Shown here piece by piece: positions 54,327-61,911 of a stretch of 64,000 bases of DNA; positions within the stretch are counted from its first letter, which is position 1, and each line of letters begins with the position of its first letter. This DNA is from Candidatus Latescibacterota bacterium. Its GTDB lineage: Bacteria; Latescibacterota; UBA2968; GCA-2709665. The DNA lies in contig CAXXJS010000049.1 of the NCBI GenBank assembly GCA_963662665.2, forward strand, positions 1-64,000, written 5' to 3'. The notes below the pieces were generated by a model, which saw only the letters and a program-made list of their open reading frames with translations, was not told where the DNA came from and made no database searches. The translations under genes were made by a program, and so were the position numbers.

Positions 54327-54399
54327 AGTGTTCTGTCCCGGAAATAGATTGCCGGAATTCGGCAGATAAATGGTAACATATTTCCATCGAAGGGACACT
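54327..54399. mobile_element. Short (73 bp) copy of the 43277-43440 MITE family
   Basis: Identical first 20 bp, shared ttgcc.gaattcggc and aatggtaa..tattt, ends ggacact; lacks the central ~90 bp. Confidence 0.7.
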
Positions 54400-54417
54400 G
54401 AAGAAGGGGTGGGTTGT

Positions 54418-55449
54418 ATGTTGCTGTTACAGGAGCGGGAAGCAGCGATTCTGAATATTCTCATCGGTACGCACGTCAATACCGGGGGCCCCGTTGGATC
54501 GAGGGCAATCGCCAGGTCCGGGCTGGGTCTCAGTTCCGCCACCGTGCGCAACTCTATGGCCGACCTGGAGGAGAAGGGCCTGCTCACCCATCCGCATACG
54601 TCGGCCGGTCGCGTTCCCACGGATAAAGGATACCGCTATTACGTCGACAGAGTGATGCCCAGGCAGACTCTGGAGGAAGAGGAACGCGAGCAGATCCGCG
54701 AGCGGGTGCGGGCATACGTCCGTGAGGGCGATATCGAAGCATTGCTCGAGCAGATGTCGAGAATGATCGCCGATCTCTCGATGAATCTCGGAATGGTTCT
54801 ATCGCCGAGGTTCGAGCGGGGGGTCTTCGACCGCCTGGAAATGGTCCATCTGTCCGAGGGAAGGCTCCTGCTGGTGCTTGCAATCAAATCGGGGCTGGTG
54901 AAGACGATGGTAATGGAGGTGGACTCCGCCATTGCCCCCGGCGAACTGGATGATACGTCGCGGGCGGTAAACGAACGCCTTTCCGGTCTCAGCGTGGCGG
55001 AAATCAGAGATTCGGTTGCCGAACGGCTCCGTGAGGTCTCAAGCGGGTCTCCCAGACTCCTGCGCGTGCTGTGTGACAGCGCGCCAAGCCTCTTTCGCTT
55101 CCAAAGCGGTATGGATCTGCACTTCGGCGGGGCGGGCAATTTCATCATGCAGCCTGAATTCAACCGCAAGAAAAACGACCTGGCGGCCCTGATGGAATTG
55201 CTTGAAGCCCGGGAACCGATGATTACGATTCTGGACGAAAGAACCGAAAAAGACGGCATTTCCGTCACGATCGGCACCGAAAACGGACCGTCGCAACTCC
55301 GTGGCTGCAGCGTGCTTACTTCGAGATATCGGGTTGGCGCCATCTCGGGAGTTATCGGGCTGATCGGGCCCACTCGCATCCCGTACGCGAGGCTCATACC
55401 TCTCACCCGGTATATGGCGGCACTGGCCGAGGAAATGTTGGATCAATAG
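54418..55449 (+). CDS. hrcA: Heat-inducible transcription repressor HrcA
   Basis: PVGSR, SSATVRNSMADLEE, HPHTSAGRVPTDKGYRYYVD, IGPTRIPY. Confidence 0.95.
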   Translation: MLLLQEREAAILNILIGTHVNTGGPVGSRAIARSGLGLSSATVRNSMADLEEKGLLTHPHTSAGRVPTDKGYRYYVDRVMPRQTLEEEEREQIRERVRAYVREGDIEALLEQMSRMIADLSMNLGMVLSPRFERGVFDRLEMVHLSEGRLLLVLAIKSGLVKTMVMEVDSAIAPGELDDTSRAVNERLSGLSVAEIRDSVAERLREVSSGSPRLLRVLCDSAPSLFRFQSGMDLHFGGAGNFIMQPEFNRKKNDLAALMELLEAREPMITILDERTEKDGISVTIGTENGPSQLRGCSVLTSRYRVGAISGVIGLIGPTRIPYARLIPLTRYMAALAEEMLDQ

Positions 55450-55470
55450 CAGGAGGTTACACGGGCGCAT

Positions 55471-56064
55471 ATGGCGAAATCTAACGAAGTCAACGACGAA
55501 GAAACACAGGAGGAGACCGCCGAAGCGGAAGCTCCCGCGGAAGTGGAAACGCCGGATCCGCTGGCGGAAGCCCTCCGGGAGTCGGAAGAGCACCGGGATC
55601 GGTGGCTTCGGCTGGCAGCCGAATTCGACAACTACAAGAAACGGAGGTCGAGGGAATTCGATGCCCTGGTGCAATCGGCCAGCGAGAACCTGATACGAGA
55701 ATTGCTGCCTGTTCTCGATTCGGTCGCACGCGCGTTGGACCATCGCGCCGACGGCGAGGACGATTCAGAGGGGTACAAACAGGGCGTCGCCATGATAATG
55801 GAACAATTCCCGAAAGTCCTCGAGCGTCGAGGGCTTTCGGAGATCGAGGCCGCGGGCCGACCGTTCGACCCCAACTTTCACGAAGCGCTGATGCAGATGT
55901 CTTCAGATCAGCACGCCGAGGGGCTGGTAATGGCCGTCGTGGAACGGGGGTACCGTATGGGCGATAGAGTCATACGCCCGGCAAAGGTTGTCGTGAGCGG
56001 AGGGAGCGCGGAAGAGGAGCCCGCAAGCGAAGAAGAAGGCGAGGAAGAAAGTGAAGCGCGGTAA
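55471..56064 (+). CDS. grpE: Nucleotide exchange factor GrpE
   Basis: RLAAEFDNYKKR, LLPVLD, FDPNFHEA, GYRMGDRVIRPAKVVV. Confidence 0.96.
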   Translation: MAKSNEVNDEETQEETAEAEAPAEVETPDPLAEALRESEEHRDRWLRLAAEFDNYKKRRSREFDALVQSASENLIRELLPVLDSVARALDHRADGEDDSEGYKQGVAMIMEQFPKVLERRGLSEIEAAGRPFDPNFHEALMQMSSDQHAEGLVMAVVERGYRMGDRVIRPAKVVVSGGSAEEEPASEEEGEEESEAR

Positions 56065-56121
56065 CTCTGAGCAGGGCCGGAAATCGGCTCTGTTGTTTGT
56101 TTTGCCCGACAGGAACGGATA

Positions 56122-57279
56122 ATGTCCAAACGCGACTACTACGAGGTCCTCGGTCTGCAACGCGAAGCAACCGAAGGCGAAATTAAGAAAGCCTATCGCA
56201 AACAGGCGATGCAATATCATCCCGACCGTAACGCGGGCGATGAAGAGGCCGCGGCCAGATTCAAGGAGGCCGCCGAAGCATATGAGGTCCTGGGCGATAC
56301 CCAGAAACGTCGCGTGTACGACCAGTACGGTCATGCGGGTCTGGGCGGGCCGTTCCAGGGCGGGGGATTTCAATGGTCCGATTTCACCCATGCAACCGAT
56401 TTCGAGGACATTTTCTCCAATCTCGACGACGTGTTCGGCGGCGGTATTCTGGGCGATCTGTTCGGCCGACGCGGCGGCCGTCGCGGCCCCCAGCGTGGGG
56501 AGGACCTCCGCATTCCGCTCCGGTTGACCCTGGAAGAGATCGCGGCCGGCGCACAAAAGAAGATCCGATTTGCGCGGATGGAAAAGTGCGGCACATGCGA
56601 CGGGAGCGGCGCCCGTTCCGGCGCTGCCGCCAGGACCTGCAGCGTCTGCAACGGGATGGGGCAGGTGCGCCAGGCGACCAGGTCGATGTTCGGCCAGTTC
56701 GTGAACGTAACCACGTGCCCCCAGTGCAACGGCGAGGGCAAGGTGATCGGCGACCGCTGCTCCGACTGCGGCGGCGAGGGCAGGGCGAAAAAGACCGTAA
56801 GTCTGGCAGTCAACGTCCCGGCGGGTGTGACCGACGGCAACTACATCCCGTTGCGGGGGCAGGGCAGCGTTGGACCCCGTGATGGCGCCGCCGGGGATTG
56901 CATGGTGCTGATCGAAGAGGAGGAGCACGAGTACTTCGAGCGGCACGGCAACGACATTCTCTATGAATTGCCCATCAGCTTCAGCCAGGCGGCGCTGGGC
57001 GCCGACGTGACGGTTCCCACGTTGAACAGCAAGGCGGAAATGAAGATTCCGGCCGGAACGCAGTCCGGACAGGTTTTTCGCCTGCGGGGCAAGGGTATAC
57101 CGGAACTGAACGGGTACCGTACCGGCGACCAGCTCGTTCGCGTGATGGTCTGGACGCCAGCCCGTCTCAACGAGGATGAGAAGACGCTGTTCAGGCAACT
57201 CGCCGAACTGGAGAATATCCAGCCACCGGAAGGTGGAAAAGGCTTATTCGAACGTATGAAAGAGGCGTTCGGCGGTTAG
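56122..57279 (+). CDS. dnaJ: Chaperone DnaJ
   Basis: DYYEVLG, HPD, four CxxCxGxG zinc-finger repeats. Confidence 0.97.
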   Translation: MSKRDYYEVLGLQREATEGEIKKAYRKQAMQYHPDRNAGDEEAAARFKEAAEAYEVLGDTQKRRVYDQYGHAGLGGPFQGGGFQWSDFTHATDFEDIFSNLDDVFGGGILGDLFGRRGGRRGPQRGEDLRIPLRLTLEEIAAGAQKKIRFARMEKCGTCDGSGARSGAAARTCSVCNGMGQVRQATRSMFGQFVNVTTCPQCNGEGKVIGDRCSDCGGEGRAKKTVSLAVNVPAGVTDGNYIPLRGQGSVGPRDGAAGDCMVLIEEEEHEYFERHGNDILYELPISFSQAALGADVTVPTLNSKAEMKIPAGTQSGQVFRLRGKGIPELNGYRTGDQLVRVMVWTPARLNEDEKTLFRQLAELENIQPPEGGKGLFERMKEAFGG

Positions 57280-57317
57280 CGAATAGTACCCGTGTGTCTC
57301 CTTTACGCAATACGGGC

Positions 57318-57348
57318 GTCCCGTGCATCCGCACGGGGCTTTTTTTTT
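57318..57348 (+). terminator. Intrinsic terminator after dnaJ
   Basis: gtcccgtgc-atcc-gcacggggc followed by a long T tract. Confidence 0.85.
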
Positions 57349-57376
57349 GGGGGGCCGATCGTCGCCGGACTGCGCG

Positions 57377-58819
57377 TTACGTTTTCCTCAGCCTGCGGAA
57401 AAGCGGTTGACTCTTCCTGATCTCCGATTTCGAAAAACTGGTTTCGATATGATCGGCGGTACACGGAAGAAAGGGTCTCAGGACCCGCGAAATGGCGCGA
57501 ATCGAACCGACCCAGGCCGAGAGATTTTTCCGGAGCTTCCCGGCCTTTCCCTGTTTCAGAAATTCCCACGGACGTTCCGCGTCGATTTCGCGGTTCAGAC
57601 CGCCAACGCGCCGCCAGATGGCCCTCAGGCCGCCGGCAAAGTCGAATTCGTCTAGCGCGTGCGTGACGTCCTGTGGAACGCGGGCATCGGGCGTTTCCGC
57701 CCGACCGTAACCGCACCCTTCGCATAGGGCTTCGAGCCGGCGCACCAGGTTGCCCAGACCGTTCGCAAGGTCCGAGTTGTACACTTCCCGCAGCCTGGCT
57801 TCGGACACATCGCCGTCCTCTCCCGAACGGACTGCGCGGAGCAGGTAGTACCGGAGGGCGTCAGCGCCGTATCGCCGGATCAGGGGGAATGGGTCCACGG
57901 CGTTGTCCAGCGACTTTCCGATCTTGCGGCCTTCCACGGTCAGATGGCCGTGGACGAAGATGGTTCGGGGAAGCGGCAGGCCGGCGGAGAGCAGCAGGGC
58001 GGGCCAGTAAACCGCGTGAAACTTGAGGATATCTTTGCCGATCACGTGGACCCGGTTGGGGCAGTTGCGCCAAAACCGATCGAATTTTTCGACCCCCGAA
58101 CCATAGCCCAGACCGGTGAGGTAGTTGGTCAGGGCGTCGAACCAGACGTACATGACCTGCGTCGGGTGTCCAGGCACGGGCACGCCCCAGCCTCCGGAAC
58201 GCTCCCGATTGCGGGAAATGCTGAAGTCACGCAGGCCCTGCCTGATGAATCCCAGCGCTTCGTTTCGGCGTGTTTCCGGGAGAATGCGAAGCTCTCCGGA
58301 CGCGATCAGGCCCTCGAGCGCCTTCTGATAGGCGGATAGGCGGAAGAAATAGTTGGTTTCTTCCACGGACTCGGGTTCGACGGCGTGAACAGGGCATCGA
58401 CCGTCCGAAAGGTCCCGCTTCAGGTAGAAGTCCTCGCATCCCGCGCAATACAGACCGCGGTACTGCCGGAGGTAGATATCCTCCTGCCGGCAGTCGGTCC
58501 AGAATCCGGATGCGCCGCGGAAGTGGACGTTGGAGGAGGAGCGGATGAAAGCGTCGGAAGAGACGTTGAGGGCTTCGACCAGGTTTCGGAAGACCGCGGC
58601 ATTCCGATCGCAGAACTGATCGGGCGCAAGGCCCTGACGGGCGGCGGCCTGCACGTTTTTGAACGCATTTTCGTCGGTTCCGGTGAGGAAAAACGTCTCG
58701 TCGCCCAGGAGCCGCCGCCACCGTGCAATCGCGTCGGCCTGTACGAGTTCCAGCGCGAAACCCACGTGGGGGCGGGCATTGACGTAGGGGATGGACGTAG
58801 ATACGTAGAACGTATTCAT
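57377..58819 (-). CDS. metG: Methionyl-tRNA synthetase, short atypical form (HVGF/KIGKS, Met-depleted)
   Basis: FYVSTSIPYVN, FFLTGTDE, YCxxCE..CPVH knuckle, NYFFRLS, YVWFDAL, IGKDILKFHAVYWPA, LANGLGNL, NREIDAERPW. Confidence 0.9.
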   Translation of the reverse strand: MNTFYVSTSIPYVNARPHVGFALELVQADAIARWRRLLGDETFFLTGTDENAFKNVQAAARQGLAPDQFCDRNAAVFRNLVEALNVSSDAFIRSSSNVHFRGASGFWTDCRQEDIYLRQYRGLYCAGCEDFYLKRDLSDGRCPVHAVEPESVEETNYFFRLSAYQKALEGLIASGELRILPETRRNEALGFIRQGLRDFSISRNRERSGGWGVPVPGHPTQVMYVWFDALTNYLTGLGYGSGVEKFDRFWRNCPNRVHVIGKDILKFHAVYWPALLLSAGLPLPRTIFVHGHLTVEGRKIGKSLDNAVDPFPLIRRYGADALRYYLLRAVRSGEDGDVSEARLREVYNSDLANGLGNLVRRLEALCEGCGYGRAETPDARVPQDVTHALDEFDFAGGLRAIWRRVGGLNREIDAERPWEFLKQGKAGKLRKNLSAWVGSIRAISRVLRPFLPCTADHIETSFSKSEIRKSQPLFRRLRKT

Positions 58820-58836
58820 CAGGAGGCCCTTTCCAT

Positions 58837-58874
58837 AAAAAAAACCCCACCGCCGATCCGTCGGCGGTGGGGTT
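58837..58874 (-). terminator. Attenuator-type intrinsic terminator in the metG leader
   Basis: Perfect 14-bp stem aaccccaccgccga/tcggcggtggggtt, 4-nt loop, U8 tract ending 17 nt before metG ATG. Confidence 0.88.
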
Positions 58875-58902
58875 GTCGATTCAGGTACACGTACGATTCA
58901 GT

Positions 58903-59061
58903 TCATTTCATGGGATGGTCCGCCGCGGGATGTCCGAATGAGATAGAGGACATCATGCACATCGAAATCACGGCGACACGGGTCGATGCATTGCCATGTG
59001 GAACGGCTGAGGATTGTACTGATAAACGCGAAACGTAGACCGAAATCTGAACCGATTTCAT
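58903..59061 (-). CDS. Putative metG leader peptide (52 aa, M-C-M-M cluster)
   Basis: GGGGAGAG RBS before ATG 59061; ATG TGC ATG ATG at 58962-58951; stop about 28 nt before the terminator stem. Confidence 0.6.
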   Translation of the reverse strand: MKSVQISVYVSRLSVQSSAVPHGNASTRVAVISMCMMSSISFGHPAADHPMK

Positions 59062-59088
59062 CTTACTCTCCCCAATTGTGTGGGCGTA

Positions 59089-59117
59089 AAGATAGACGGC
59101 CAGCCATGAATTGTCAA
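59089..59117 (-). promoter_or_regulatory. Sigma70 promoter for leader peptide and metG
   Basis: Minus strand TTGACA, 17 bp, TATCTT. Confidence 0.6.
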
Positions 59118-59170
59118 GTTTCACGTGCGGACGTACCGCATTTCAGGTATCGCACCGTGCAATTCGCGCA

Positions 59171-59307
59171 GGGATGATCCCATGCTGCAGTAGATCCTTC
59201 GTCGGCCTGGCGGCCTCCTCAGGATGACAGTTTTACCGACACCTTACAGACAGACTTCGCCACCGGTTACCGCAACGCATGTCATTCTGAGCGCAGCGAA
59301 GAATCTC
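59171..59307. repeat. REPIN-like inverted doublet, copy 2
   Basis: Homologous to 13359-13524 but lacking the 28-bp insert. Confidence 0.8.
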
Positions 59308-59462
59308 ACGTACATCGTGAATCTGATATCTTCCCCTTGTCCTTTTGGCGGTATGGGCTTAAATTGACGAAGGCAGGAGAATCCGGGGTGGGCCTGCCGG
59401 TCACCCGGTTTCCGGGCGGTATTCTACTTTCGTGAATATTATTATAGAGTAAGGGATCGGTT

Positions 59463-60512
59463 GTGCTTTACTGGTTGGGAGAGCGTTTCTCGGACGTTTA
59501 CGGGCCCCTTCGGCTGTTAACGTCCTATCTGTTTCTGGCCGTTCTGGGCACGGCGCTGGCCGGTTTATTCACCTGGCGGCTGCTTCCCGGATTGTGGATG
59601 CGGCTGCCCAAAGACCGTGGCCGCGCGTATGCCGTCGATAACGAGCAGAGCCACGGCAAGCCCGTGGGTGCCGGCGTTATTTTCATCCCCATCTACCTGA
59701 TCGTGTGTTTTCTGATCCTCCCGCCGGGTTCCCAGTACTGGCAGATTCTGGGCTGTCTGTTTCTCGCGATGCTGGCCGGGTTCCTTGACGATCGAAGTCC
59801 TGGCGGATGGGGCGAGTACCGCGTGGGAGCCATCGACCTGGGCATTTCCCTGCTGGGCGCAATGGTTATTTGCCAGTTGGAGTCCGTCGAGCTCTGGCTT
59901 CCGCTGATGAAGACGCCGGTACTGGTCCAACCGTGGATTTTCGTGCCCGGGGCCGCGTTATTGATCTGGGTTTCAATCAATGCCACCAACTGTACGGATG
60001 GCGTGGACGGGCTGTCGGGCAGCCTGAGTGTGCTCGCCTTCATCTATCTGGGCGTCATTCTATACGGGATTGTAGGGCACACGGACATTGCCCGGTATCT
60101 TCTTGTGCCGCACTATCCGGACGGCGCGGTCTGGGCCCTGTTCGCATTTGTCATGGCCGGGTGTCTGGCCGGTTATCTCTGGTATAACGCCTATCCCAGC
60201 GCAGTGCTGATGGGAGACGCGGGATCCCGGCCGATGGGCTTCCTGCTCGGGATACTGGTTCTGGCGTGCGGCAATCCGTTTCTGATCGTCGTGGTCGCAA
60301 GCGTGGTGCTGGTGAATGGGGCCACGGGACTGCTGAAAGTGGCGTTGCTGCGGTTTCTGAAGATCGGGATATTCGAGACGGTTCGATATCCGCTGCACGA
60401 TCATTTTCGGCACAAAAACGGATGGTCGAATACGCACGTACTCGTGCGGTTTATTCTGCTCCAGGCGTTTGTGACGCCGATTCTGCTGGTTTTGCTGGTT
60501 AAGATCCGCTGA
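59463..60512 (+). CDS. mraY: Phospho-N-acetylmuramoyl-pentapeptide transferase (MraY family)
   Basis: MLYWL start, GFLDD, NATNCTDGVDGL, LWYNAYPSAVLMGDAGS, PLHDHF. Confidence 0.88.
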   Translation: MLYWLGERFSDVYGPLRLLTSYLFLAVLGTALAGLFTWRLLPGLWMRLPKDRGRAYAVDNEQSHGKPVGAGVIFIPIYLIVCFLILPPGSQYWQILGCLFLAMLAGFLDDRSPGGWGEYRVGAIDLGISLLGAMVICQLESVELWLPLMKTPVLVQPWIFVPGAALLIWVSINATNCTDGVDGLSGSLSVLAFIYLGVILYGIVGHTDIARYLLVPHYPDGAVWALFAFVMAGCLAGYLWYNAYPSAVLMGDAGSRPMGFLLGILVLACGNPFLIVVVASVVLVNGATGLLKVALLRFLKIGIFETVRYPLHDHFRHKNGWSNTHVLVRFILLQAFVTPILLVLLVKIR

Positions 60513-60552: not shown

Positions 60553-61911
60553 ATGGACGCAAAAGAAACGCTAAAGCGGAAAATCTGTGAGGCCATCGAC
60601 CGCCGGCGCGGACAGATCGAGCGGATCGGGGACCACATTATGGCCCATCCGGAGACTGGGTTCAAGGAATTCGAAACGTCCAGGCTGGCGGCGAATACCA
60701 TGGAAGAGTTCGGGATTTCGCCGGAAACCGGGCTGGGGATTACCGGCGTGAAGGGCATTTTACGGGGTGCGAAACCGGGCCCGACCGTGGCCCTGATCGG
60801 CGAGCTGGATTCGCTTGTAGTGCCGGATCATCCCATGGCCGATCCCGAAACCGGCGCCGCACACGCCTGTGGACACAACGCGCAGATGGCCGGGCTGCTG
60901 GGCGCGATGATGGGGATGGTGGACACCGGCGCGGCTGAGTCCATGGCCGGCAACGTCGTGTTTTTCGCGGTGCCCGCGGAAGAGTATATCGAGGTCGAGT
61001 ACCGGATGGGACTGGTCAGGGAAGGAAAGCTGGAGTTCCTGGGCGGCAAACCCGAACTCGTCCGCCTCGGGCATTTCGACGATATCGACGTGGCGGCCAT
61101 GATCCACACGCACAGCGACCCTGGCATGAAGAAGGCGGCGACTGCCAAGTCGTGCAACGGATGTATGGTGAAGATGATCCGGTTCGTTGGCCGTGCCGCG
61201 CACGCCGGAGGCGCGCCTCACAGGGGAATCAACGCGTTGAACGCCGCCCAGATCGCATTAATGGCAATTCATGCGCAGCGTGAGACGTTTCGGGATAACG
61301 ATTCGATCCGGGTACATCCGATCATCACCAGGGGCGGCGACATCGTGAATGTGGTGCCGGCGGAGGTAACGATGGAGACCTACGTCCGGGGGAAGACGAA
61401 CGAAGCGATGCTGGACGCCAACGAGAAGGTCGACCGGGCGATCCGCGCGGGGGCCATGGCGGTCGGCGCTCGGGTGGAGATCGAGACGCTGCCGGGGTAC
61501 ATGCCCGTCAGGACCGATCCTGCGTTGAGCGAAGTGTTCGAATCGAATTCGAGAGCACTATTCGGCGACGACGAGGTCTGTGAGGTCTCGCACCGGTCGG
61601 GATCCACGGATATGGGGGATCTGTCCCACATCATGCCGGCGATCCATCCGTACATGTCCGGAGCGGACGGCGTGGGTCACAGCGCGGACTGGCATATTTC
61701 GGACAAGGAGATGGGGTATATCGCGCCCGCGAAATCACTGGCGCTTCTGGCCGTGGACCTTCTGCACGGCGCCGGCGAGGAGGCGACGGGCGTGCTCCGG
61801 GACTTCGAGCCGGCGATGACGAAGGAAGAGTACCTGACGTTCCAGCGTGCGCTGTTCAAGACGGAGGTATTCGACGGGGCAGGCGGCGGGAAAGACGGGA
61901 ATACGAACTGA
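60553..61911 (+). CDS. M20 family amidohydrolase (ACY1L2/AbgB-like)
   Basis: HPETGFKE, GELDSL, HACGHN, PAEE, GRAAHAG, GSTDMGD. Confidence 0.9.
   Translation: MDAKETLKRKICEAIDRRRGQIERIGDHIMAHPETGFKEFETSRLAANTMEEFGISPETGLGITGVKGILRGAKPGPTVALIGELDSLVVPDHPMADPETGAAHACGHNAQMAGLLGAMMGMVDTGAAESMAGNVVFFAVPAEEYIEVEYRMGLVREGKLEFLGGKPELVRLGHFDDIDVAAMIHTHSDPGMKKAATAKSCNGCMVKMIRFVGRAAHAGGAPHRGINALNAAQIALMAIHAQRETFRDNDSIRVHPIITRGGDIVNVVPAEVTMETYVRGKTNEAMLDANEKVDRAIRAGAMAVGARVEIETLPGYMPVRTDPALSEVFESNSRALFGDDEVCEVSHRSGSTDMGDLSHIMPAIHPYMSGADGVGHSADWHISDKEMGYIAPAKSLALLAVDLLHGAGEEATGVLRDFEPAMTKEEYLTFQRALFKTEVFDGAGGGKDGNTN

Follow-up and report, generated by a model that had tools for sequence, protein, structure and literature searches.

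We have identified a methionyl-tRNA synthetase (MetRS) that is almost free of methionine (Met), encoded in a 64,000-nucleotide stretch of DNA from a Candidatus Latescibacterota bacterium (GenBank assembly GCA_963662665.2, contig CAXXJS010000049.1, positions 1 to 64,000; below, the window). The gene lies directly downstream of a leader that contains a short open reading frame (ORF) with a cluster of Met codons, followed by an intrinsic terminator. The reading that we consider likely is that of an auxiliary MetRS, which scarcity of Met-tRNA induces through ribosome-mediated attenuation and which has been purged of Met so that it remains translatable under precisely this condition. A preliminary description of the gene, based on the letters of the window and their ORFs, had proposed a secondary MetRS that stays translatable when Met-tRNA is scarce. 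This proposal is now supported by the presence of a second, canonical MetRS in the genome, by the Met-poor composition of the homologues and by the leader with its Met codons and terminator, which had not been foreseen.

Depletion of methionine in the synthetase and its homologues

Apart from the initiator, the 480-amino-acid (aa) protein contains a single Met (residue 223, within QVMYVW), and the near-elimination of this residue, on which the preliminary description was centred, is therefore real. When genes were called crudely across the genome (3555 ORFs; 4.86 Mb in 66 contigs, 92% complete), internal Met residues occurred at a rate of 1.9%, at which approximately nine would be expected in a protein of this size. 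Proteins of 400-600 aa contain a median of nine Met, and at most one is present in 15 of 781, many of which are visibly spurious antisense ORFs. The binomial probability of finding no more than one Met among 479 residues is 9.6e-4 if the rate of the proteome is assumed and 6e-5 if that of the canonical MetRS of the same genome is used (see below). For a single gene such a test is suggestive but not decisive; it is the homologues that make the depletion decisive.

The depletion is specific to Met and to the reading frame. Cysteine is not depleted in this protein (nine residues, 1.88%, versus 1.21% in the proteome), and between 3 and 11 Cys are found across the Met-poor clade. The numbers of ATG triplets in the coding frame and in the two other frames are 2/6/3 in the gene of the 480-aa enzyme and 16/11/3 in that of the canonical one. 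The neighbouring genes contain 16 (hrcA), 6 (grpE), 8 (dnaJ), 7 (a MraY-like gene) and 23 (an M20-type amidohydrolase, 60553..61911; 5.1%) internal Met, the last of these agreeing with the earlier remark that neighbours such as this amidohydrolase are rich in Met.

The homologues were represented by the 119 best matches in a collection of 5.8 billion proteins (51-86% identity, mostly of about 478 aa). The possibility, considered in the preliminary description, that these would have an ordinary Met content was not borne out: internal Met is absent from 31 of them, 72 contain at most one and 93 at most three, while six or more are found in 19. At the 50% clustering level, 17 of 150 representatives have no internal Met at all. 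When ordinary MetRS proteins are compared with the Met-poor clade, alignment columns that hold Met in 37-85% of the former are occupied by L, I or V in the latter (residues 223, 275, 277, 300, 365, 389 and 451). These include the M of KMSKS (residue 300) and the M of WPAM, and the last Met residues to disappear are those at positions 223 and 275.

In a tree of 345 sequences (FastTree), the window MetRS falls within a clade of 115 sequences (support 100), consisting of a subclade of 95 members with a median of one Met (range 0-6) and a sister group of 20 with a median of eight. Further Met-poor groups are a clade of 15 (median of zero Met), which includes sequences of Actinorhabdospora, Rhizobium and Pelagibius, a Curtissbacteria clade of 14 (1-3 Met), and several sequences of Chloroflexota (2-3 Met). 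At least 18 changes between a content of no more than two and of at least five Met are needed on this topology; the deep nodes are poorly supported, which makes the number of independent origins uncertain. The gene tree does not follow the phyla, across which the distribution is patchy.

Catalytic and anticodon-binding motifs

The assignment of the protein as a MetRS is supported by matches to PF09334 (E 2e-93; 313.6 bits against a cut-off of 20.1) and TIGR00398, the metG family (394.1 bits, above the cut-off of 336.35). The score against the full-length equivalog NF008900 is below the cut-off (463.6 versus 598), largely because the protein, which has no C-terminal domain, ends at position 478 of the 648 of the model. 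Residues 1-457 align with the MetRS of Aquifex aeolicus whose structure was solved with tRNA (2CSX; E = 1e-105), and the segments PYVN (PY.N), GTDE, VWFDAL..NY, FH..YWPA and the zinc knuckle C-x-x-C...C-P-x-H (CP-domain) are identical or conservatively replaced. The anticodon (CAU) motifs N...R and P-W of the helical domain likewise align with those of 2CSX. In an alignment of 18 Met-free members the zinc knuckle and the segments of the Met pocket (presumably formed by the residues that contact Met in the E. coli enzyme) are invariant, as are G356, N357, R361, P417 and W418.

The motif replacements listed in the preliminary description stand as observations (HVGF at residues 18-21, DENA within GTDENA at 47-52, WPALLL at 272-277, KIGKS at 299-303 and PFLP at 449-452), as does the retention of the N...PW segment of the anticodon side (GNLVRR, 356-361; RPWEF, 416-420). 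They do not all bear on the avoidance of Met, however, since HxGF and DENA are clade signatures in which no Met is involved, and KI[SG]KS is also found in clade members with a normal Met content. In HVGF, the counterpart of HIGH, the first His and the Gly are retained and the last His is replaced by Phe. The H.GF variant, present in 108 of the 119 close homologues and also in the sole MetRS of a Curtissbacteria genome, is probably functional. In the loop corresponding to KMSKS both Lys residues and the Ser are retained, with Ile in place of Met, and KI[SG]KS is present in 110 of the 119 homologues.

MetRS of the HxGF/KISKS type is the sole MetRS in all six genomes of the candidate phyla radiation (CPR; Patescibacteria) that were tested, where it has 2, 3, 4, 5, 6 and 18 internal Met and no leader. 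This form can hence serve as a housekeeping enzyme, and its motif variants are for this reason compatible with a working enzyme. Judged by these alignments, the active site and the anticodon site of the Met-poor MetRS are intact, and the protein would be expected to be catalytically active and to charge tRNA(Met).

A second, canonical MetRS and the distribution of the pair

A canonical MetRS, the existence of which would be expected if the Met-poor enzyme were a secondary one, is indeed encoded on another contig of the same genome (G000:C21:111713-113617). This protein of 634 aa carries HLGH, GTDEHG and KMGKS motifs as well as a C-terminal extension, and contains 16 internal Met (2.5%). The same pair, i.e. 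a protein of 634 aa with 15-16 Met and one of 478 aa with 1-2 Met, is present in all five of the closest relatives among public genomes (four labelled Latescibacterota and one Gemmatimonadota).

We searched 168 genomes of the phylum with the Met-poor protein (E <= 1e-30; the Met-poor type was defined by at least 50% identity). A match was obtained in 156 of them, nearly always to the canonical copy (about 40-47% identity), while the Met-poor type has a patchy distribution, being found in approximately 23 of the 168. It occurs in 14 of the 15 genomes of the genus to which the window belongs (its own included; one copy is split) and in scattered genomes of three other families. On the basis of this difference in distribution, the 634-aa protein is taken as the housekeeping enzyme and the 480-aa MetRS as an accessory paralogue. 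Three Met-poor copies contain an internal stop codon (G105:C491, G123:C139 and G078:C132; loci L129-L131, with TAG, TAA and TGA), suggestive of an accessory gene in decay or of contig errors.

Among the carriers tested in other phyla, two MetRS genes were found in Rhizobium, Actinorhabdospora, Pelagibius and an Anaerolineae genome; a Ktedonobacterales assembly was fragmentary. An asymmetry in Met content between the two copies was also seen in a Planctomycetaceae genome (8 versus 2) and in two genomes of Chloroflexota (12 versus 2 and 6 versus 2). One of the genomes covered here (G007; loci L046, L099 and L104) is flagged as unpublished; its values (12 versus 2 Met; leader NMSMAMRSRM) agree with those of the others, and no conclusion is based on it. 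The other MetRS associated with loci L100 and L099 (Chloroflexia, Ktedonobacteraceae; L099 being from the genome flagged as unpublished) is very divergent: it has 555 aa and HVGQ at the position of HIGH, and a pattern search of it revealed no KMSKS-like motif.

A leader with methionine codons and a terminator upstream of the MetRS gene

The features identified around the MetRS gene are compiled in Table 1. Because the 17 nucleotides (nt) that separate the end of the terminator T-run from the MetRS start codon are too short for a separate promoter, the gene would be transcribed only through the terminator. It is monocistronic, as marked by the terminator-like hairpin of the convergent dnaJ gene.

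Table 1. Features of the MetRS locus (window coordinates)
Feature	Position	Strand	Remarks
Sigma-70-like promoter of the leader transcript (putative)	59089..59117	-	TTGACA, 17 nt, TATCTT; 10 of 12 consensus matches
Leader ORF MKSVQISVYVSRLSVQSSAVPHGNASTRVAVISMCMMSSISFGHPAADHPMK*	58903..59061	-	52 codons and stop; Shine-Dalgarno-like GGGGAGAG before the ATG at 59061; homologous ORF in genus-level relatives
Regulatory codon cluster ATG TGC ATG ATG (M-C-M-M)	58951..58962	-	leader codons 34-37
Predicted antiterminator 5' strand CCGCGGCGG	58920..58928	-	leader codons P-A-A; complementary to the terminator 5' arm
Intrinsic terminator	58837..58874	-	G+C-rich stem of 14 bp (58874..58843), loop of 4, T-run of eight to 58837; dG -28.6
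Ribosome binding site region GGAAAGGG	58819..58836	-	between the terminator and the MetRS start codon
Met-poor auxiliary MetRS	57377..58819	-	480 aa, ATG start; MetRS core lacking the C-terminal tRNA-binding extension
Terminator-like hairpin of the convergent dnaJ gene	57318..57339	+	dnaJ ends at 57279

The promoter block (TTGACAATTC...CTAT(C/A)T(T/A)) is common to the relatives L010-L013. In 13 genus-level leaders the codon cluster reads M-[C/R/Y]-M-M, and once M-Y-M-P, i.e. the Met codons stay and the second codon varies. The terminator is well supported by covariation in 15 related leaders: 98.1% of the alignment cells are paired, both sides have changed in 6 of the 14 pairs, and none of 500 shuffles reaches this level, while slid registers of the same alignment give 27-58% paired. 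A mini-ORF of five codons (MERAS*), whose TGA overlaps the MetRS start codon (TGATG), was noticed in the ribosome binding site region; it is not conserved in L010-L012.

Scans against Rfam gave no catalogued element. With E-values (positions 56500-60500) the matches were all sub-threshold, the best being NsiR1 (29 bits versus 39), which corresponds to the terminator hairpin, and at the gathering threshold there was no match in 13 related loci, i.e. no T-box, SAM riboswitch or catalogued leader. No tRNA genes were found in the window, and a look-up of RNA data for positions 57300-59200 returned no listed run. As read from the sequence, the leader, its Met codons and the terminator would together constitute the regulatory device expected of a gene that is switched on by scarce Met-tRNA.

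Predicted antiterminator

The leader transcript was folded up to the terminator loop with a ribosome masking either the Met cluster or the leader stop codon. In the first case a helix (-16 to -17 kcal/mol) is predicted between CCGCGGCGG and the 5' arm of the terminator. In the second, the ribosome covers CCGCGGCGG and no helix of similar stability arises (about -2). The predicted geometry is that of classical attenuation.

We extended this folding to the 17 leaders, of 18 tried, in which the script located a terminator (7 of the 17 being from the genus of the window). In these, the last Met codon lies 58-83 nt, and the leader stop codon 17-44 nt, from the terminator arm. For all 17, masking the Met cluster is predicted to leave a more stable fold (-13.7 to -36.1 kcal/mol) than masking the leader stop (0 to -9.8). 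In the stalled state more bases of the 5' arm of the terminator are paired in 14 of the 17, an equal number in two (L117 and L033) and none in one (L068). Two more distant members of the phylum (L126 and L127) have another terminator arm, CCCGCTGTC, which matches another upstream strand, GGCAGTGG, with which it is predicted to pair.

The same arrangement in other phyla

A leader with clustered Met codons, followed by a terminator with a T-run, also precedes the genes of Met-poor MetRS paralogues in Chloroflexota, Planctomycetota, Alphaproteobacteria and Actinomycetota. The clusters read SMSMVMRMRG, TMSMREAMRMRG and PMGMRRRG in Anaerolineae, FMSLAMRSR in Chloroflexia, VMLMPMRG in Ktedonobacterales, GMMRPP in another member of Chloroflexota, SNMMMPVTM in Pelagibius, CAMMPLYNM in Rhizobium and RMRTAFTRMMRP in Actinorhabdospora. 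The Planctomycetaceae leader (GRMMMRR) was read by eye, having been missed by the detector described below owing to a bulged stem. Across the phyla the leaders are of the types M-[CRY]-M-M, M-x-M-x-M-R and M-M-P-R, none of which is present in Rfam.

The association with Met poverty was quantified with a detector that requires an upstream ORF of 8-90 codons with at least two Met within five codons, and a terminator starting 5-60 nt past its stop codon, within 450 nt of the MetRS start. Among loci from genomes (five duplicates removed) it was positive in 24 of 37 with at most three Met and in 3 of 58 with four or more. Among metagenome contigs, 6 of 80 of which were left out because they had too little upstream sequence, it was positive in 12 of 17 with at most three Met and a G+C content of at least 0.6, and in 2 of 45 with four or more Met. 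Random genes of the genome studied gave 1 positive in 688.

Applied to all genes of this genome, the detector was positive in 23 of 3483, a set that does not include the canonical MetRS, and the highest score (3 Met, stem of 16) was attained by the locus of the Met-poor MetRS alone. None of the other genes recovered by this loose detector is convincing as a carrier of the same leader, the best being located upstream of an IMP dehydrogenase-like gene; two of them are spurious ORFs.

A short type of leader ending in ...MMPR(S/A)RG or ...MMRP, followed by a terminator, was noticed upstream of MetRS genes with 0-3 Met in L173, L175, L189, L202 and L205 (metagenome contigs with a G+C content of about 0.7), and also in L056, L068 and L172; Met codons followed by Pro or Arg recur in leaders that are otherwise unrelated.

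Another kind of upstream ORF (...SHS.GG...[YFA]M[RC][MT]S...ERTC) likewise has Met codons and extends, out of frame, into the ribosome binding site and start codon of the Met-poor MetRS gene. In L009, L013 and L127 its position is downstream of the terminator, and in L122, L123 and L127 about 110-130 nt upstream of the MetRS start. L122 and L123, phylum members whose MetRS has zero Met, are without the terminator type of leader, and the ORF (...GG..[YA]MR[MT]SSSMRN...), their sole upstream element, runs into the ribosome binding site and start codon. To judge from its sequence, this second kind of ORF may be a translational sensor of the same signal.

Taken across at least five phyla, these data led us to a wider claim, towards which we lean only slightly: that a spare MetRS free, or nearly free, of its cognate amino acid (0-3 Met in about 480-540 residues) has been wired to an attenuator made of cognate codons, forming a self-starting rescue loop, and that Met content is an evolvable trait which flips repeatedly with the backup role. 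Such a loop would break a deadlock, in which the production of more MetRS requires the very Met-tRNA that is missing.

Proposed mechanism

According to the proposed mechanism, MetRS would by default be off, owing to the intrinsic terminator in the leader transcript. When Met-tRNA(Met) is plentiful, the ribosome would pass through M-C-M-M to the leader stop codon and cover the antiterminator strand; the terminator would form, and transcription would end just short of the MetRS start. When Met-tRNA(Met) is scarce, the ribosome would stall at the Met codons, CCGCGGCGG would pair with the 5' arm of the terminator, and RNA polymerase would read through to yield MetRS mRNA. Since the enzyme would be needed exactly when Met-tRNA is limiting, its frame would have been cleared of Met codons by selection (a single one remains besides the initiator), which would keep its own translation from stalling. 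Such a protein would require one initiator Met, versus about ten Met for a typical protein of the same size, and the additional enzyme would raise the charging capacity of the cell. The promoter, the antiterminator, the stalling, the induction, the catalytic activity and the cause of the shortage are parts that we infer.

Candidate causes of a shortage of Met-tRNA are a limitation of Met or cobalamin, or inhibition of or damage to the housekeeping MetRS. Limitation of Met is plausible, and inhibition of the housekeeping enzyme is equally compatible with the data. The genome encodes a full-length cobalamin-dependent MetH (G000:C5:3731-7339) and no full-length MetE, short MetE-like C-terminal homologues being the only ones found in it; for this reason the supply of Met may depend on vitamin B12.

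Several points weigh against this mechanism. Expression, termination and enzyme activity are all deduced from sequence. The antiterminator comes from folding, and covariation in the register of the window is weak (89.5% of cells paired, two pairs changed on both sides, 32 of 500 shuffles as high). Both the leader and the enzyme still need initiator Met-tRNA, and a second MetRS would be of no help if Met were truly absent. The Phe in place of the second His of HIGH might conceivably carry a catalytic cost. As to the comparative data, 13 of the 24 positive loci come from one genus, which reduces them to roughly 10-12 independent lineages; the detector was positive in 1 of 12 Met-poor metagenome contigs (at most three Met) with a G+C content below 0.6; and the arrangement is missing from seven low-G+C, CPR-like Met-poor loci as well as from L122 and L123. 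Nor is low Met strictly tied to a backup role, as CPR relatives with 2-6 Met are sole MetRS proteins, and several genomes of Chloroflexota have two copies although their HxGF/KISKS type contains 5-10 Met. The simple rule that a low Met content marks a backup copy and a normal content a sole copy was for this reason rejected; it holds only in part (2-18 Met in the sole copies of CPR, 5-10 in some two-copy Chloroflexota).

Alternative explanations

The alternative that deserves most attention, which we regard as unlikely though by no means negligible, is that the enzyme is an inhibitor- or antimetabolite-resistant MetRS that replaces a blocked housekeeping enzyme. The logic of the circuit would be the same as in the attenuation-controlled rescue proposed above, as the attenuator would sense the fall in Met-tRNA and a Met-free chain could be made during the block; the difference would lie in the trigger and in the property of the enzyme that was selected. 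A resistant copy would fit well with the presence of a housekeeping enzyme beside it and with a patchy distribution and a gene tree that departs from the phyla, both compatible with horizontal transfer. The closest regulatory analogue known to us is a TrpRS that resists an antibiotic and is reportedly controlled by ribosome-mediated attenuation. The altered HxGF and DENA motifs are situated at the active site, but HxGF/KISKS is also found in the sole MetRS of CPR genomes and is hence no mark of a resistance copy. Moreover, no biosynthetic cluster or mobile element adjoins the gene in the approximately 3 kb inspected on each side, where the neighbours are hrcA-grpE-dnaJ, the MraY-like gene and the M20 peptidase, and we know of no inhibitor in these habitats. 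Resistant aminoacyl-tRNA synthetase paralogues, including MetRS, and natural toxins directed against MetRS are described as documented in PMC5388404.

The remaining explanations account for less of the data. Met might have been removed because it is prone to oxidation, or in order to save sulfur during sulfur starvation, for which sulfur-depleted isoforms are an established phenomenon; the canonical copy, for its part, is Met-rich (2.5%). The normal-to-high Cys content of the protein and its clade led us to reject both variants, which we rate as very improbable; in addition, the control element is one that reads Met codons rather than a signal of redox state or of sulfur, and the Rfam scans revealed no known riboswitch. 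It is equally improbable, in our opinion, that the protein is a MetRS-like enzyme which activates Met or an analogue for another pathway and does not charge tRNA. The loss of the second His of HIGH, the change from DEHG to DENA, the absence of the C-terminal tRNA-binding extension and the score below the NF008900 cut-off (largely an effect of length, as explained above) could be read in this way, but the anticodon-binding domain keeps N...R and P-W and aligns with that of the A. aeolicus enzyme, TIGR00398 is matched above its cut-off, relatives of the same architecture are the sole MetRS in the six CPR genomes, and no pathway genes lie near the gene. Finally, the low Met content might be due to chance or composition, and the small ORF with its hairpin might be an unrelated small gene with a terminator of its own. 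A single-gene probability of about 1e-3 and the existence of other Met-poor ORFs in crude gene calls leave some room for such a coincidence; against it, the depletion persists as identity falls to about 50%, 31 homologues have zero internal Met, the leader and terminator recur in several phyla with unrelated sequences (compared with one of the random genes), and the position of the T-run implies that the enzyme is transcribed only through the terminator. We consider this the least credible of all the explanations, and extremely improbable.

Relation to known systems

Aminoacyl-tRNA synthetase genes of Firmicutes are commonly known to be under T-box control, in which expression rises with uncharged cognate tRNA, sensed by direct contact between tRNA and RNA. 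The response of the system proposed here would be the same, unlike its sensor, which would be a stalled ribosome; no T-box was found in the Rfam scans. A classical attenuator upstream of a synthetase gene is that of pheST in E. coli. Attenuators were also described upstream of the trpS and leuS genes of certain Streptomyces (Seliverstov et al. 2005, PMC1262725), and the leader ORF with regulatory codons, the terminator and the predicted alternative antiterminator upstream of the MetRS gene resemble all of these. The parts of that survey considered here report no RNA regulatory structure for methionine operons.

Among spare synthetases, the closest parallel known to us is the auxiliary TrpRS1 of Streptomyces coelicolor: the proposed system would share with it the position beside a housekeeping enzyme, the leader peptide with cognate codons and the induction by falling charged cognate tRNA. 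This indolmycin-resistant enzyme is reportedly controlled by ribosome-mediated attenuation (work attributed to Vecchione and Sello, J Bacteriol 2010). The present case differs in that the amino acid is Met, not Trp, and in that the arrangement is found repeatedly, in five phyla or more. To our knowledge, no near-complete loss of its cognate residue has been reported for TrpRS1. Streptococcus pneumoniae is likewise said to possess a second MetRS, MetRS2, which gives resistance to an inhibitor (a finding associated with Gentry et al. 2003). Two MetRS genes are present in one genome in both cases, but MetRS2 is of a different MetRS type, and we know of no report of Met depletion or of a leader for it.

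The composition of the enzyme also has precedents. Biosynthetic enzymes show a low content of the amino acid that they produce (low cognate bias; Fasani and Savageau 2014, PMC4209129), the shared principle being that a protein needed during starvation for an amino acid holds little of it. The bias there concerns biosynthetic pathways, and the term aminoacyl-tRNA synthetase does not occur in the text of that paper as available to us, whereas here the synthetase itself is affected and the avoidance is near-absolute (0-1 Met in about 480 residues). In a cyanobacterium a duplicate ThrRS (T2) is induced under zinc deficiency (Rubio et al. 2015, PMC4787780). T2 is likewise a duplicated synthetase whose expression is confined to conditions in which the main enzyme fails, and it is adapted to function under scarcity, as we suppose for the MetRS; in that case, however, the scarce factor is a cofactor metal and not a substrate, the regulation and the adaptation are different, and the cognate residue has not been purged, as far as the sections of that paper considered here extend.

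A review (PMC9437257) mentions neither MetRS nor attenuation nor starvation. In the literature searched we found no Met-codon attenuator, no Met-depleted MetRS and no combination of the two, and as subscription journals and supplements were mostly outside this coverage, an earlier report is possible. The novelty lies in the combination of an attenuation-controlled auxiliary synthetase with avoidance of the cognate residue: the parts are known, and we found no prior description of them together.

Genomic surroundings

The genes hrcA, grpE and dnaJ lie in a row at 54370-57279 (+), convergent with the MetRS gene, and no dnaK is present between grpE and dnaJ there. On the contig of the canonical metG, approximately 8 kb downstream of this gene, a ValRS-like gene (PPPNVTGELHMGHAL, KMSKSLGTGIDP) is split over at least five reading-frame segments (G000:C21:about 121000-122950; locus L007, 1303-3242), being either a pseudogene or the product of a series of frameshifts in the assembly.

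Conclusions

To conclude, if the proposed mechanism is correct, Met joins the short list of amino acids that are sensed by leader-peptide attenuation, and several leader families absent from Rfam are added to those known. The same design may exist for other synthetases. The combination of a cognate-free synthetase paralogue with a leader of cognate codons could serve as a genomic signature in the search for conditionally expressed synthetases and possibly for habitats with natural MetRS inhibitors. Since the carriers include cultured bacteria (Rhizobium sp. 2YAF20, Actinorhabdospora filicis NBRC 111898 and Pelagibius sp. Alg239-R121; loci L036, L056 and L065), the idea is directly testable. 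A naturally Met-free MetRS would also be a tool for work with Met analogues, as its own chain cannot be altered by them. Finally, with a spare synthetase that is induced by the shortage of an amino acid and lacks this amino acid itself, nature would provide a clear example of an enzyme whose composition has been shaped by the logic of its own regulation.

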